Source: an uncultured Planctomycetales bacterium
GTDB taxonomy: Bacteria; Omnitrophota; Gorgyraeia; Zapsychrales; Fredricksoniimonadaceae
Reading direction: 5' to 3'
Length of the DNA: 64,000 nt
NCBI GenBank assembly: GCA_964572155.1
Contig: CAZNDZ010000001.1
Span: 412,630-476,629 of the forward strand
Both the position numbers and the translations under genes were made by a program. Below the pieces are notes generated by a model. It saw only the letters and a program-made list of their open reading frames with translations, had not been told where the DNA came from and searched no databases. This document shows positions 2,216 to 61,975 of this stretch, piece after piece; within the stretch, counting starts at the first letter, position 1, and each line of letters begins with the position of its first letter.

Positions 2216-3493
2216 ATGAATATTTTAGTTATTGGCGCCGGCGGACGTGAACATGCGATCTGTTGGAAGCTTAAACAATCACCTAAAGTAGAGCGCCTCT
2301 ATTGCGCTCCAGGCAATGCTGGCATTGATGCGATAGCCCAATGCGTGGCCATTGATGTTACCGATGTAGAGGCTTTGCTTAAGTTTGCTTTAGAAAAGAA
2401 AATTGATTTAACCGTCGTCGGACCAGAAGTGTCTTTGGTGGCGGGCGTTGTTGATGCGTTCTCCAAAAAAGGCTTAAAGATTTTTGGACCATCCCAAGAA
2501 GCTGCTCAATTGGAAGGCAGCAAGGTGTTTTGTAAGGATTTCATGCATCGCCGCAATATCCCAACCGCGGTGTATAAAGTCTTTGATAATCCTAAAGCTG
2601 CCATTGAATTTTTACATCAAGCCCAGTTTCCCATCGTGGTTAAAGCCGATGGTGTCGCAGCAGGCAAAGGTGTCTATGTCTGTAAGGATTTAAAAGAGGC
2701 AGAAATCGCGGTTGATGATATGATGGTAAAGAAGCTTTTTGGTGCTGCAGGTAACCGCATTGTCATTGAAGAATGTTTAGAAGGTCAAGAAGCATCGGTC
2801 TTAGCGATCTGTGATGGTAAGCATTTTTTAGTTTTGCCAACTGCTCAAGACCATAAGCGTATTTTTGACGATGATTTAGGGCCAAACACCGGCGGGATGG
2901 GAACATTTTCACCTAATCCATTGGTCACAGCCGCTGTTTTAGATCAGATCATTGCGCGCATCATTGAACCAGCGGTGCGGGGGATGTATCAAGAAGGTAT
3001 GCCGTTTAAAGGTGTGTTATACGCCGGCATCATGTTGACCAAGGATGGGCCTAAGACGTTAGAATATAACGTGCGTTTTGGTGATCCTGAAACGCAATGC
3101 ATTTTACCGCGACTAACATCGGACTTAGTCGATATACTCCTTGCTTCTTGTGAAGGAACATTGGATCAAATTAAAGTAAAGTGGGATGATCGTGCTTGTG
3201 TTTGTGTTGTCATTGCATCTGGCGGGTATCCTGGGAAATATCAAAATGGTTATGCCATTATAGGGCTAGATGCGGCAAACAGTGACGATACAGTGGTATT
3301 TCATGCAGGGACGAAAAATGAAGGTGGAAACATCGTTACCAATGGCGGTCGTGTTTTAGGGGTTGTTGGTTTAGGCAGGAGTTTAACCAAGGCGCGTGAT
3401 ATAGCCTATGGGGCTGTTGAGAAAATACAGTTTGAACATATATTTTTCCGTCGTGATATTGGGGTTAAAACGTTAAAGGCCGTTAAAGTATGA
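2216..3493 (+). CDS. purD: phosphoribosylamine--glycine ligase
   Basis: 425 aa, MNILVIGAGGREHAI N-terminus, ATP-grasp. Confidence 0.9.
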   Translation: MNILVIGAGGREHAICWKLKQSPKVERLYCAPGNAGIDAIAQCVAIDVTDVEALLKFALEKKIDLTVVGPEVSLVAGVVDAFSKKGLKIFGPSQEAAQLEGSKVFCKDFMHRRNIPTAVYKVFDNPKAAIEFLHQAQFPIVVKADGVAAGKGVYVCKDLKEAEIAVDDMMVKKLFGAAGNRIVIEECLEGQEASVLAICDGKHFLVLPTAQDHKRIFDDDLGPNTGGMGTFSPNPLVTAAVLDQIIARIIEPAVRGMYQEGMPFKGVLYAGIMLTKDGPKTLEYNVRFGDPETQCILPRLTSDLVDILLASCEGTLDQIKVKWDDRACVCVVIASGGYPGKYQNGYAIIGLDAANSDDTVVFHAGTKNEGGNIVTNGGRVLGVVGLGRSLTKARDIAYGAVEKIQFEHIFFRRDIGVKTLKAVKV

Positions 3494-4560
3494 GCTTTAA
3501 GACCAAGATCTTAACCATTAATTCCGCGGTGCCCGAAGCTGATCGTATTGCTGAGGCAGCACACGTCATCCGTCGTGGTGGTTTGGTGATTTTTCCGACG
3601 GAAACGGTCTATGGGATTGCCGCTGATGCCAATAATCCTAAAGCAATTGAGCGGCTTAACGCAGTTAAACAAAGATCGACAGAGAAAAGATATTCCGTCT
3701 TGGTTGCGCATCGCAGCGTTGTTGATAATTACAGCTGTTATACGGAGCCAAATTTATATAAGTTAATTGATAAGTATTGGCCAGGTCCTTTAACGGTCAT
3801 TGTTCCCTCACGAGATCCCATCGAGGAAACCATTGGAATTCGTATGCCGGATCATACGATTGCTTTGCGTCTTGTTGAAGAGTCAGGATGTACGATAGCC
3901 GCACCTTCAGCAAATATTGAAGGCAAGAAGCCGCCGACCAATGTGACGCAGGCCTTGGAAGATTTAGATGGTTTGGTTGATTTGGCCATTGATGGCGGAC
4001 CTGTTGATTTTGGCATCTCATCGACGATTGTTGATTTTACCAAGGCGTCCCCGACGGTTATCCGAGACGGGGTTATTTCTCAGCAAGATGTGGATCGCAC
4101 CGTTAATCGCAAATGCGTGTTATTTGTTTGCACGGGCAATAGCTGTCGATCGGTGATGGCAGAATATTTATTGAAGGCAAAGTTGATTGGTCGAGAAGAT
4201 GTGGAAGTTATCTCAGCAGGGACCAATGTGTATTTCAAATCACCCGCTAGCCATGAGACCATGACGGTGTTGCGTGAACAAGGTATTAATGCCAATATGC
4301 ATATGTCTAGGCAATTGGGGCGCGTGATGTTGCGCAAAGCAGATTTAATTTTTGCCATGACCCGCGGGCATCGCACCCAGATTTTAGATTTGGTGCCATC
4401 CGTCGAGAAACGGGTGTATTTGCTCAAAGAATTTTGTGAGAGCCGTGCGTATGAAACAGAGCCAGATGTTCCGGATCCAATTGGGCAAGGCCACGGCGAG
4501 TATCAAGATTGTTTGTTAACCATCAAAGAAGCGGTTGAAAAGATTGAAGGGTTATTGTAG
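3490..4560 (+). CDS. tsaC: bifunctional L-threonylcarbamoyladenylate synthase (YrdC/TsaC domain) fused to low-molecular-weight protein tyrosine/arginine phosphatase (YwlE-like)
   Basis: N-terminal YrdC fold (VIFPTETVYGIAADANNPKAIERL). C-terminal LMW-PTP P-loop (VLFVCTGNSCRSVMAEY, CX5R). Confidence 0.75.
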   Translation: MSFKTKILTINSAVPEADRIAEAAHVIRRGGLVIFPTETVYGIAADANNPKAIERLNAVKQRSTEKRYSVLVAHRSVVDNYSCYTEPNLYKLIDKYWPGPLTVIVPSRDPIEETIGIRMPDHTIALRLVEESGCTIAAPSANIEGKKPPTNVTQALEDLDGLVDLAIDGGPVDFGISSTIVDFTKASPTVIRDGVISQQDVDRTVNRKCVLFVCTGNSCRSVMAEYLLKAKLIGREDVEVISAGTNVYFKSPASHETMTVLREQGINANMHMSRQLGRVMLRKADLIFAMTRGHRTQILDLVPSVEKRVYLLKEFCESRAYETEPDVPDPIGQGHGEYQDCLLTIKEAVEKIEGLL

Positions 4561-5035: not shown

Positions 5036-6277
5036 ATGAAGCACTTACAACAATCAGATCCAGAAATTTTTGATGCGATACAACATGAGTTAAAACGCCA
5101 AAAGAATAACTTGGAGTTAATAGCGTCGGAAAATATTGTTTCTCAAAGCGTGCTCGAAGCTGCGGGCAGTGTCTTGACCAATAAATATGCTGAAGGTTAT
5201 CCAGCAGCCCGTTGGTACGGCGGTTGTGAATACGTCGACGTGGCAGAAAGCCTAGCCATCGCACGTGCAAAACAATTATTTGGCGCAGAGCATGTTAATG
5301 TGCAACCACATTCTGGTTCACAAGCAAATACGGCTGTCTATTTAGCAGTCTTAAAGCCTGGTGATGTTGTTATGGGTTTAGATCTTGCATGTGGTGGGCA
5401 TTTAACGCATGGGTTAAAGATTAATATCTCAGGGCGTTTGTATAATTTTGTTTCCTACAAGGTTAATGAGAAGACTGAATTGATCGAAATGGAGGAAGTA
5501 GAGCGCATTGCCTTGGAACATAAACCTAAGATGATCGTCGCTGGTTATTCAGCTTATTCAAGGGTTTTAGATTTTAAGCGTTTCCGTGCGATTGCCGATA
5601 AAGTAGGTGCTTACCTTTTTGTCGACATGGCCCATTTTGCTGGTCTTGTGGCCGCAGGTTTATATCCAAACCCTGTGCCAGACGCACATTTTGTAACGAC
5701 CACCACCCATAAAACATTACGTGGTCCTCGTGGCGGGATGATTTTATGTAAAGCGGAATTTGCTAAGAAAATTGATAGCGCGATTTTCCCAGGCATACAA
5801 GGCGGACCTTTGATGCACATCATCGCGGCTAAGGCAGTGGCATTCAAAGAAGCGTTAAGTCCATCATTTAAAAATTATCAAAGCCAAGTCATCACCAATG
5901 CCAAGACCTTAGCCGATGCCTTAACGGCAAAAGGGTTTCGCATCGTTGCTGGTGGTACAGATAATCATTTGTTCATGGTGGATTTGCGCCCTAAAAATAT
6001 TGCTGGTAAAGATGCATCGGAAGTCTTAGATAAAGTGCAGATCACGGTCAATAAGAACTTGATCCCGTTTGATACAGCAGCACCGACAGTGACGAGCGGT
6101 ATTCGCATTGGTACACCTGCTGTCACATCACGTGGCATGAAAGAAACAGAAATGCGTGAAATTGCTGGGTTAATCGATGAGGCCATTGTGCATCACAAAG
6201 ATGCTGCAAAATTAGAAGCAATCCGTGTGCAAGTGCAGCGTCTAGCAGATGCTTTTCCAATTTATAAAGAATTATAA
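5036..6277 (+). CDS. glyA: serine hydroxymethyltransferase
   Basis: 413 aa, canonical SHMT sequence including the [16 protein letters not shown]-lysine region. Confidence 0.95.
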
Positions 6278-45261: not shown

Positions 45262-45333
45262 AGATTTTTAGGTTGTGTTTTTAAAAAGTTGTGTCATACT
45301 ACGTGAACATTTTTGAAGTCACCGGAAGAATAT

Positions 45334-45653
45334 CGCGGGGTGGAGCAGCCCGGTAGCTCGCCAGGCTCAGCACGTAACATGGGCGTCTAGTTGAGAAATC
45401 AATTAGAAGATTATCTGTCAAAGTCGGTGAAGCCTGAAAATGGTAATACCGAGCCAAGTTCCGATTACCTCAGAAATATTTAGGAAATCGGAAAAGGTGT
45501 AGAGACTAGATGGCAGACGTCCTCCTCGAAAGAGAGGATGAAGGTATAGTCCAGACCACAAACCGTGAACCCAACGTGGTTCATGGGCGGCGAAAGTCGT
45601 AGATGGTACGCATAACCTGGAGGTCATAGGTTCAAATCCTGTCCCCGCAACCA
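45334..45653 (+). tRNA. initiator tRNA-fMet (anticodon CAU) interrupted by a group I intron; exons 45334..45367 and 45611..45653, CCA encoded
   Basis: Exons join to CGCGGGGTGGAGCAGCCCGGTAGCTCGCCAGGCT|CATAACCTGGAGGTCATAGGTTCAAATCCTGTCCCCGCAACCA. This is almost identical to E. coli tRNA-fMet and has the C1xA72 initiator hallmark. Confidence 0.8.
45368..45610 (+). ncRNA. group I self-splicing intron (243 nt) in the anticodon loop of tRNA-fMet
   Basis: R-like element GTGTAGAGACTAGA (45497-45510). S-like element AAGGTATAGTCC (45541-45552) forming P7 (GACTA/TAGTC). P8-like hairpin CCTCCTC-GAAA-GAGAGG. The 5' exon ends in U and the intron ends in G (45610). No ORF inside. Confidence 0.65.
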
Positions 45654-45697
45654 ATAAAAACAGACAGTTCCTTTTGGGGCTGTCTGTTTTTATTTTG
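45654..45697 (+). terminator. rho-independent terminator after tRNA-fMet
   Basis: AAAAACAGACAG-ttccttttgggg-CTGTCTGTTTTTATTTTG stem-loop plus T-run. Confidence 0.7.
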
Positions 45698-45803
45698 TTA
45701 TGTAAGCAGGATTTGAGTGAGCCCTGTTTAGAACTCCGACGAATAGGAGGAGTTCTAGGGCGAGTGGCTGACCCGCAGAGAGCCGGAGGCGAACGAAGGG
45801 CAC

Positions 45804-45864
45804 CAAATCCTGTTCCCGCAACCAATAAAACAGCAGTCCCTTTTGGGGCTGCTGTTTTATTTTG
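45804..45864 (+). repeat. near-identical direct repeat of the tRNA-fMet 3' end plus its terminator (copy of 45633..45697)
   Basis: CAAATCCTGTTCCCGCAACCAATAAAACAGCAGTCCCTTTTGGGGCTGCTGTTTTATTTTG versus the first copy, with only a few mismatches. Confidence 0.6.
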
Positions 45865-45914
45865 TTTCTAAGAAAGATCTTTTCAAATGACTCAAACGAT
45901 ATCAAAATACATTT

Positions 45915-46334
45915 ATGGATACAAAATTAAAAGCTGATATTGCTGAATCTGCTGTAGTGACAGAGCTGTTATCAAGAGGGTTTGTTGTGTTGCGTCCTGT
46001 TGGTGATAGGTTGGCGTATGATTTGGCGGTTGAAGTTAATAAGAAATTGATTCGCATTCAGGTAAAACATGCATGGTTTAATGTAAAAGATAATGTTTAT
46101 GTTACTGATGCGCGTAGGACAAAAACAAATCGTAGGGTAATGTTACGAAAGAAATATTCCGACGATGATTTTGATTTCGCCATTGTATATTTAGGGGATA
46201 AAAAAGTTTTTTACGTGATTCCAAGTAAGGTATTTAATGGTTTTGCTAGTTCAATAAGTTTTGTAGAAGATGAAAAAAGGCAACGTGCTCCCAAGACAGC
46301 GATCTATAGAGAATGTTGGAAATTATTGAAATAA
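45915..46334 (+). CDS. PD-(D/E)XK nuclease-fold protein, Hjc/restriction-endonuclease-like (hypothetical)
   Basis: ESAVVTELLSRGFVVLRPVGDRLAYDLAVEVNKKLIRIQVKH matches the Hjc-type E...GF.V.R...D(L)...(I)(Q/E)VK catalytic pattern; 139 aa. Confidence 0.45.
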   Translation: MDTKLKADIAESAVVTELLSRGFVVLRPVGDRLAYDLAVEVNKKLIRIQVKHAWFNVKDNVYVTDARRTKTNRRVMLRKKYSDDDFDFAIVYLGDKKVFYVIPSKVFNGFASSISFVEDEKRQRAPKTAIYRECWKLLK

Positions 46335-46363
46335 TGTAAGGTTACGATAGAAAAAGGATTTAG

Positions 46364-46651
46364 ATGAATAACATATTTGTAAAAAATCTTAATTTTAAAA
46401 CGACCAATGAGGAATTGGCTAATCATTTTGCGCCTTTTGGTGTCGTCGCTAGCGCGTCGATTGTTATGAATAAGGGTAAGTCCTTGGGATATGGTTTTGT
46501 GGATATGCCCAATCTTGAGGAGAAAGATAAAGCTATTTTGGAATTAGATGGCAAAGAATTAATGGGGCGTGCTTTAGTGGTTACTGTCGTGGTTGAGAGG
46601 ATAAAGCATAAGAAAAAGGCTAAGAATAGAAAACCTATAGGAAAAAAATAA
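46364..46651 (+). CDS. RNA-binding protein with RRM domain
   Basis: RNP-2 IFVKNL and RNP-1 LGYGFVDM motifs; 95 aa with a basic C-terminal tail. Confidence 0.75.
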   Translation: MNNIFVKNLNFKTTNEELANHFAPFGVVASASIVMNKGKSLGYGFVDMPNLEEKDKAILELDGKELMGRALVVTVVVERIKHKKKAKNRKPIGKK

Positions 46652-61884: not shown

Positions 61885-61975
61885 AACGATAAAGGCAAAC
61901 CCAGAGTAATCTGGGGACGCAAAGCCATGGATCCTTATAAGTCTCAAGGACAGCCAGGTTACCGAAACCGCAAGC
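61885..61975 (+). promoter_or_regulatory. c-di-GMP-I (GEMM) riboswitch aptamer
   Basis: GGCAAACC-[CCCAGA GTAA TCTGGG hairpin with GNRA loop]-GACGCAAAGCC-[P3 hairpin TCCTT...AAGGA]-GCCAGGTTACCGA. Matches the GEMM consensus blocks GGCAAACC / GGACGCAAAGCC / CC.GGUUACCG. About 70 nt of expression platform precedes ATG 62043. Confidence 0.75.

Follow-up and report, generated by a model that had tools for sequence, protein, structure and literature searches.

I-Ssp6803I, the homing endonuclease encoded in the group I intron of the Synechocystis initiator tRNA gene (tRNA-fMet), is the closest described relative of the gene considered here. To our knowledge, its family comprises the only homing endonucleases built on the restriction-enzyme fold. 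The enzyme is a tetramer that acts on a 23-bp pseudo-palindromic target, and the PD-(D/E)XK fold it shares with restriction enzymes also includes the core of Hjc (PMC3384342). Two phage systems provide a second precedent, since they have established collaborative homing between a free-standing endonuclease and an intron that lacks an open reading frame (ORF) (PMC3984707). In such pairs the intron gives immunity and the nuclease gives mobility (PMC3984707; related work in PMC6083498 and PMC2790892). Stand-alone genes of the Pfam family PDDEXK_5 have also been counted in the Jug jumbo phages (PMC12880540). Here we describe a 64,000-nucleotide (nt) stretch of DNA from an uncultured bacterium (contig CAZNDZ010000001.1, positions 412,630 to 476,629), called the window below, with coordinates counted from its first letter. 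In the window, a nuclease gene of the I-Ssp6803I family lies outside an intact, ORF-less group I intron and downstream of the tRNA-fMet gene that this intron interrupts. We consider it probable that a functional or recently functional enzyme of this family and the ORF-less intron make up a collaborative (trans) homing pair, and most likely it is this recurrent layout that lets nuclease and intron spread together.

Judged from its sequence, the 139-amino-acid gene is an intact, full-length, direct homologue of I-Ssp6803I. The protein matches Pfam PF11645 (PDDEXK_5) at E 2.7e-40 and 138 bits (cut-off 26.1), with residues 1-137 aligned on positions 1-137 of the 138 in the profile, and a phmmer search of the PDB matched residues 2-138 to 2ost_A at E 1e-38. 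In the Foldseek output, entry 2OST carries the title 'The structure of a bacterial homing endonuclease: I-Ssp6803I'. Because both matches run over the full length, the ORF is not a chance one. An AlphaFold model of the protein (predicted local distance difference test, pLDDT, 85.5; predicted template-modelling score, pTM, 0.82) was placed by Foldseek on 2ost_A with a template-modelling (TM) score of 0.91, a root-mean-square deviation of 2.1 Å and 47% identity (E 2e-18), whereas Hjc structures reached TM 0.38-0.50 at 14-20% identity (probability 0.97-1.0). EcoRV and the nuclease domains of SPARDA rank with Hjc after 2OST, at TM 0.3-0.5, and neither the Pfam search nor the PDB sequence search gave any sequence relationship to Hjc. 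A sequence-only reading of the window had called the protein Hjc-like and had proposed comparing it with both I-Ssp6803I and Hjc. That comparison confirms a PD-(D/E)XK nuclease with I-Ssp6803I clearly closest; the Hjc label is correct at the level of the fold, but the true relationship is direct homology to I-Ssp6803I. The PADLOC profile 'HEase' (homing endonuclease) also matches the protein (E 4e-44), an NCBIfam search gave no match, and NCBI labels the homologues 'group I intron-associated PD-(D/E)XK endonuclease'.

The active-site motif quoted in the sequence-only reading is present (E11; G22-F-V-V-L-R27; D36-L37; K43-x4-I48-Q-V-K51), except that five residues, not seven, separate D36-L37 from K43. 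Residues D36, Q49, V50 and K51 are invariant across 35 sequences including I-Ssp6803I. The window protein also keeps D8 and E11, which are nearly invariant in the family alignment, and retains all columns that are invariant among 34 aligned homologues. We take the active site, of PD-(D/E)XK type, to be formed by an acidic residue in helix 1, D36 and Q49-x-K51. Nonsynonymous divergence (dN) from eleven relatives is 0.18-0.30 while synonymous divergence (dS) is saturated or above 2, and the protein has therefore been under purifying selection. The G+C content of the gene is 34.8%, and 26% at third codon positions, against 42.7% for the 64-kb window, in which gene and intron occur in one copy each. 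The RRM-protein gene that follows is also AT-rich relative to the window, with 35.8% G+C (the two genes span 45915-46651).

The tRNA-fMet gene (45334-45653, + strand) is interrupted by a 243-nt intron that matches the full Rfam model RF00028 (Intron_gpI) with 74.9 bits against a gathering score of 50 (E 1e-18). In P1, as assigned by eye, GCU^CA (the caret marks the splice site) pairs with UGGGC; the splice site is at a U.G pair, the loop measures 9 nt and G is the last intron nucleotide. ARAGORN at default settings did not call the tRNA-fMet gene; in intron mode it returned a tRNA-Met(CAT) and put the 243-nt intron behind nt 34. Once joined, the exons fold into a 77-nt tRNA with a C1/A72 mismatch, a typical feature of bacterial initiator tRNAs, and the intron is apparently splicing-competent. 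No ORF lies within its 243 nt. The nuclease ATG lies downstream, separated by 261 nt from the tRNA 3' end and by 305 nt from the 3' splice site, which agrees with the ORF-less intron and the spacing of about 260 bp given by the sequence-only reading. Initiator tRNAs usually have three consecutive G:C pairs at the base of the anticodon stem; that of the window has two, pair 29:41 being A:U. Most related loci have CAGG/CCTG, AAGG/CCTT or TAGG/CCTA in the anticodon stem, so the putative nuclease target varies among hosts at this stem. At two loci from other samples whose nuclease is identical to that of the window (L001 and L002, assembled independently), the contigs end no more than 10 nt upstream of the tRNA-fMet 5' end, at points equivalent to window positions 45325 and 45331. 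These breaks likely reflect a 5' exon common to co-occurring species, or they may reflect strain-level heterogeneity at the locus.

The layout of the window is found in a minority of its relatives, but repeatedly. A protein search gave 630 proteins at E <= 1e-5; the best 120 of these are 64-100% identical to the window protein, and most of those with a source name come from Candidatus Omnitrophota, the taxon labels of metagenome bins being unreliable. A genome scan gave 388 loci, of which the best 80 were inspected and sorted by exon and intron landmarks. The nuclease ORF is intronic in 60 of the 80: the tRNA begins 33-63 nt upstream of the ATG, and beyond the stop codon come the intron core and the 3' exon. 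There it fills the P1 loop, 2 nt from the splice site (L042: GGCT^CA-ATG...TCA TCG-TGGGCC); the window intron carries GCACGUAAC in the place of the ORF. Several of the called homologues start with '...GVEQ(P/S)GSSQGS', which is an in-frame translation of the tRNA-fMet 5' exon, and the ATG must therefore abut the 5' exon in those genomes. At 13 of the 80 loci (L009, L010, L012, L037, L039, L045, L049, L066, L069, L071, L074, L077 and L084) the ORF is situated as in the window, 70-340 nt downstream of a complete tRNA-fMet gene whose intron, 200-330 nt long, has no ORF. Two further loci (L026 and L007) repeat this layout but hold 1.1-2.9 kb of intervening genes, one (L062) has the nuclease gene divergent from an intron-bearing tRNA-Met gene, one (L008) has it amid intron and tRNA fragments, and three with less than 610 nt of upstream flank were left unclassified. 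At least 76 of the 80 homologues are thus in or beside an intron-bearing tRNA-fMet gene, with one more amid the fragments of such a gene, and the co-occurrence that the sequence-only reading had suggested surveying is borne out. The architecture that it had considered unusual is indeed a minority state, but one that recurs: five extra loci of the window's own clade, reached via four close homologues (P0002, P0019, P0020 and P0023), are all free-standing behind an intron-bearing tRNA-fMet.

The intron core of the window is 70-77% identical to introns of both architectures in other genomes, which indicates one intron lineage at one insertion site. Similarly, the window protein is 64-78% identical to the listed intron-encoded copies and shares all their invariant residues. 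Neighbour-joining trees of the 139-amino-acid protein place the window in a clade of non-intronic copies only (L007-L010, L012 and L049). Other free-standing copies, including those of two cultured Arcicella species, are scattered among intronic lineages, and an Emticicia genome has the intron-encoded form. Given this scatter, the trees indicate that the switch between 'inside' and 'beside' has occurred more than once, and a gene leaving the intron or one not yet entering it would both fit. The proposal of a displaced intron-associated homing endonuclease is consequently retained as regards an enzyme of the I-Ssp6803I type outside the intron, while an outward move from the intron is not demonstrated.

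Close relatives of the host provide empty sites. Related genomes keep eno and divIC in synteny upstream of tRNA-fMet, and loci fetched via DivIC form a sample that is unbiased for or against the nuclease. At 24 of the 29 informative loci the tRNA-fMet gene is intronless, and the nuclease gene is at none of these 24. The other five carry the intron (L088, L094, L099, L110 and L114): downstream of the tRNA, L114 contains the nuclease gene, in L088 and L099 it is absent from at least 2.4 kb, and the sequence of L094 and L110 stops too soon for its presence to be judged. In L095 and L105 the intronless anticodon arm is identical to the joined exons of the window over 30 nt (TAGCTCGCCAGGCT^CATAACCTGGAGGTCA). 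The enolase of L095 is 87% identical to that of the window, and in the enolase tree this locus joins the window and L010 before any other. The host clade in that tree mixes empty, intron-only and intron-plus-nuclease loci, and homing elements produce sporadic patterns of this kind around a potential target that is intact. As regards joint gain and loss, the 24 intronless loci are without the gene and L095 is without both, yet L088 and L099 have the intron only. The closest host relative with the gene is L010, whose enolase is also 87% identical and forms a pair with that of the window in the enolase tree. Its nuclease gene (2273-2689) has an in-frame stop at codon 23 and is a pseudogene beside an intact intron-bearing tRNA-fMet, as expected for the decay phase of the homing-endonuclease cycle.

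A free-standing endonuclease gene that adjoins a gene with a group I intron lacking an ORF is a feature of collaborative pairs, and it is present in the window. Given the homology to I-Ssp6803I and the near-universal linkage to tRNA-fMet, we predict that intronless tRNA-fMet alleles are most probably the substrate of the window enzyme, with cleavage at the site of intron insertion. If expressed, the enzyme would recognise DNA of the anticodon stem-loop, a pseudo-palindrome, in an intronless tRNA-fMet gene, and its cut would fall at or near the insertion site CU^CAUAA. The resident allele would be immune, as the 243-nt intron parts the two half-sites. Repair of the broken allele from the intron-plus-nuclease allele would then copy the intron in, and the nuclease gene would be carried along by co-conversion of about 0.7 kb of 3' flank. 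Afterwards the intron would splice itself out, leaving the essential initiator tRNA unharmed.

Several observations weigh against this proposal. Two strong terminators and an unrelated insert stand between the tRNA and the nuclease gene, and the terminators exclude read-through from the tRNA promoter. A promoter scan of the + strand upstream of the ORF (threshold 9/12) found none, and no Shine-Dalgarno sequence is visible upstream of the nuclease ATG. The clade of free-standing copies has a moderate bootstrap value (264/500), and the architecture counts cover the best 80 of the 388 loci scanned. At L088 and L099 the intron persists without the nuclease, and vertical inheritance with repeated loss could also give a patchy distribution. 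Moreover, the RRM gene and the gene for an 827-amino-acid membrane protein in the 3' flank are at no fetched related tRNA-fMet locus. The homology on the far side that classical homing needs would accordingly exist only within the species, and the right-hand boundary of the insertion cannot be defined by comparison. With respect to expression, 6 nt separate a weak candidate promoter (Table 1) from the ATG, so its use would yield a leaderless mRNA. Free-standing copies in L009, L012 and L049 have upstream of them a common leader and a promoter-like TTGACT...TGCAAAAT box that is better than the window candidate.

Part of this evidence would also suit an intact nuclease gene that rearrangements at the insertion-prone tRNA flank have parted from its intron, that is no longer mobile and that is heading to decay. 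The terminators and unrelated insert, the lack of a clear promoter or Shine-Dalgarno sequence and the non-syntenic downstream flank would all be in keeping with such a fate. The L010 copy is already a pseudogene, and in L007, L026, L124 and L127 the gene is 1-2.9 kb from the tRNA with other genes between. We nevertheless regard a stranded gene as unlikely. The whole free-standing clade has kept the gene intact for long enough to saturate synonymous sites although dN is only 0.18-0.30, the layout arose in several distant lineages including cultured Arcicella, and three relatives share the conserved promoter-like box.

Homologues of the nuclease are also found on viral contigs. Four from IMG/VR (L120 3001-3500, L121 2284-2782, L122 3001-3514 and L123 3001-3495), with 52-56% identity, are free-standing, and their 3' ends overlap the first bases of intronless tRNA-Met(CAT) genes; two of the four viral tRNAs have an altered anticodon stem (ACGCTCATAACGT). 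The viral layout is a third architecture of this nuclease family. Since these four genes lie directly upstream of their tRNA-Met genes, both targets and nucleases circulate on viral DNA, which would favour a domesticated exclusion or defence nuclease. The intron would then be a self-mark, and incoming intronless tRNA-Met or tRNA-fMet DNA from phages and competing strains would be cut. The restriction-enzyme fold of the protein and the long life of the gene under purifying selection would agree with such a role. We find it improbable, however, as the gene has no linked defence genes, PADLOC gives a match to the 'homing endonuclease' profile only, and the sporadic, decaying distribution suits a selfish element better than a host function. 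A changed specificity, with the enzyme targeting another site such as the tRNA 3' flank and homing alone (intronless homing), could explain the variable distances of free-standing relatives past the tRNA terminator, the viral relatives that flank intronless tRNA-Met genes and the abundant tRNA 3'-end relics in the flank, but it is very improbable given that none of the 24 intronless loci of the divIC-anchored sample has the gene and that the protein is 64-78% identical to intronic copies with all invariant residues shared.

The features of the locus, which on balance we read as a collaborative homing pair, are listed in Table 1.

Table 1. Features of the tRNA-fMet and nuclease locus, in window coordinates.
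Feature	Position	Strand	Remarks
tRNA-fMet 5' exon	45334..45367	+	34 nt, ends ...GGCU, U33; sequence reading and ARAGORN
ORF-less group I intron	45368..45610	+	243 nt, starts CAGCACG, ends GGUACG; Rfam RF00028
tRNA-fMet 3' exon	45611..45653	+	CAUAACC...CCA; joined exons give tRNA-Met(CAT)
Intrinsic terminator 1 (tRNA gene)	45653..45694	+	19-pair stem, then T run
Structured insert, 122 nt	45703..45824	+	minimum free energy -50 kcal/mol, z -4.1
Intrinsic terminator 2, near-identical to terminator 1	45824..45861	+	17-pair stem, then T run
Weak candidate promoter	45880..45908	+	TTTTCA-17 nt-CAAAAT, 8/12, by eye only
Nuclease gene, I-Ssp6803I-family PD-(D/E)XK, free-standing	45915..46334	+	ATG at 45915 to stop, 139 amino acids

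In the spacer between the tRNA and the nuclease gene, positions 45804-45824 duplicate the tRNA 3' end in 20 of 21 bases, as the sequence-only reading had noticed upstream of the ORF, and they form the 3' end of the structured insert. In this insert a 9-bp closing helix (CAGGAUUUG/CAAAUCCUG) surrounds a covarying hairpin and a variable one, and the 5' end, CAGGAUUUG, is the reverse complement of a T-arm segment in the duplicated tRNA 3' end. Copies of about 105-140 nt occur just past the tRNA-fMet terminator in other genomes (L007 1157-1268, L009 1831-1955, L124 at about 806-950 and, more weakly, L056 4733-4909), and each ends in a duplicate of its own genome's tRNA 3' end followed by a terminator. 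Hairpin 1 shows compensatory changes among four genomes (UAGAACUCC/GGAGUUCUA; UAGAAACUUC/GAAGUUUCUA; UAUAAAAUGC/GCAUUUUAUA; UAUAAAUUCC/GGAAUUUAUA), and the junction UAGGGCG(G/A)GUGGC(C/U)GA is conserved. A covariance model made from three copies matches, at E 0.014, the diverged insert after the tRNA of L056, a locus with an intronic nuclease gene. Rfam has no family for the insert; a match to 'BSnc120' was rejected because it spans the terminator only. Candidate identities for the insert are an RNA gene, the remnant of an attachment site and a tRNA copy that has been remodelled. The sequence-only reading had considered a relic of intron invasion as an alternative, but a simple invasion scar of intron or nuclease is rejected as the reading of the duplicated 3'-exon fragment, because the same insert of about 120 nt is also at L056, where the nuclease is intronic, and at L007 and L124, where it is kilobases away. 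The fragment belongs to a separate module, and not demonstrably to the nuclease gene or to intron invasion.

Other remains of tRNA-fMet are found in the 3' flank of related loci. In L009 (2530-2610) an almost complete, diverged 3' exon directly follows the nuclease stop and leads into the terminator and flank that L095 has at its empty site. The nuclease stop of L008 is directly followed by the final 18 nt of the 3' exon (4417-4470), and a detached 3' half of the intron lies 0.9 kb beyond this exon relic (5370-5480). Relics of the L008 and L009 type may be scars of one-sided repair or integration. They are absent in the window and at the other free-standing loci, and a 3'-exon relic after the nuclease stop was rejected as a general fossil of one-sided homing, being restricted to L008 and L009. 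Relics of the tRNA-fMet 3' end or anticodon arm are also present in the flanks of L125 (2241-2350), L099 (2440-2540 and 3420-3450) and L109 (4515-4535). Since inserts and tRNA-fMet relics recur in this position, the tRNA-fMet 3' flank is an insertion hot spot in the group of the window. Small ORFs of the GIY-YIG type (YVYILE...GxTxD...RRxxEH) flank the intron-bearing tRNA-fMet in L007 (378-764 and 1326-1640) and L088 (about 2829-3092), and homologous copies follow the tRNA in both.

We tentatively propose, as a possibility still short of an established case, that the eno-divIC-tRNA-fMet locus preserves all stages in the proposed assembly and disassembly of mobile group I introns, namely the empty site, the ORF-less intron, the intron with an adjacent free-standing gene and the intron with the gene in its P1 loop, with several transitions between inside and beside and the window as a natural intermediate. 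If this is true, the route becomes testable in a bacterial chromosome, for which cultured Arcicella would serve as the free-standing model and Emticicia as the intron-encoded one. The main value of the locus is this four-state series at a single syntenic place, where comparison addresses the direction of gene movement, the P1 loop as recipient and the reach of co-conversion. A logic that has been argued mainly from two phage systems now appears at an essential tRNA gene in bacterial chromosomes. There are also consequences for annotation, given that pipelines miss the split tRNA-fMet gene and name the nuclease 'intron-associated' even when it is outside introns. Elsewhere in the window, and unrelated to nuclease or intron, a c-di-GMP-I-GGC riboswitch aptamer is found at 61885-61967 (+ strand; Rfam RF03167, 69 bits where the gathering score is 59).

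In comparison with I-Ssp6803I, the window protein is homologous over its full length, is associated with the same host gene, the same intron family and the same anticodon-loop insertion site, and has the D...QVK signature in common. I-Ssp6803I is encoded within the tRNA-fMet intron of a cyanobacterium, Synechocystis. The window gene, in contrast, follows the intron and two terminators, and its host is among uncultured bacteria that carry the label Candidatus Omnitrophota. Between the putative target in the window and the GTCGGGCT/CCCGAAGG type of several other loci compared here, two base pairs of the anticodon stem differ. Hjc shares the PD-(D/E)XK core fold and differs in substrate and oligomeric state. 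The Jug jumbo phages have stand-alone genes of the same Pfam family; those genes interrupt or flank protein genes, unlike the viral homologues found here, which abut intronless tRNA-Met. The literature searched gave no account of I-Ssp6803I homologues that stand free next to tRNA-fMet introns, which is not proof of novelty. The logic would be the same as in the collaborative homing of phages, and the family of the enzyme leads us to expect the intron insertion site as its target. The phage cases come without one enzyme family both inside and beside the same intron at one locus, accompanied by intron-only and empty alleles. Collaborative homing itself is already known; what sets the window apart is the layout of a probable collaborative pair on a bacterial chromosome, where a tRNA gene is the host of the intron and the enzyme is of the PD-(D/E)XK type.

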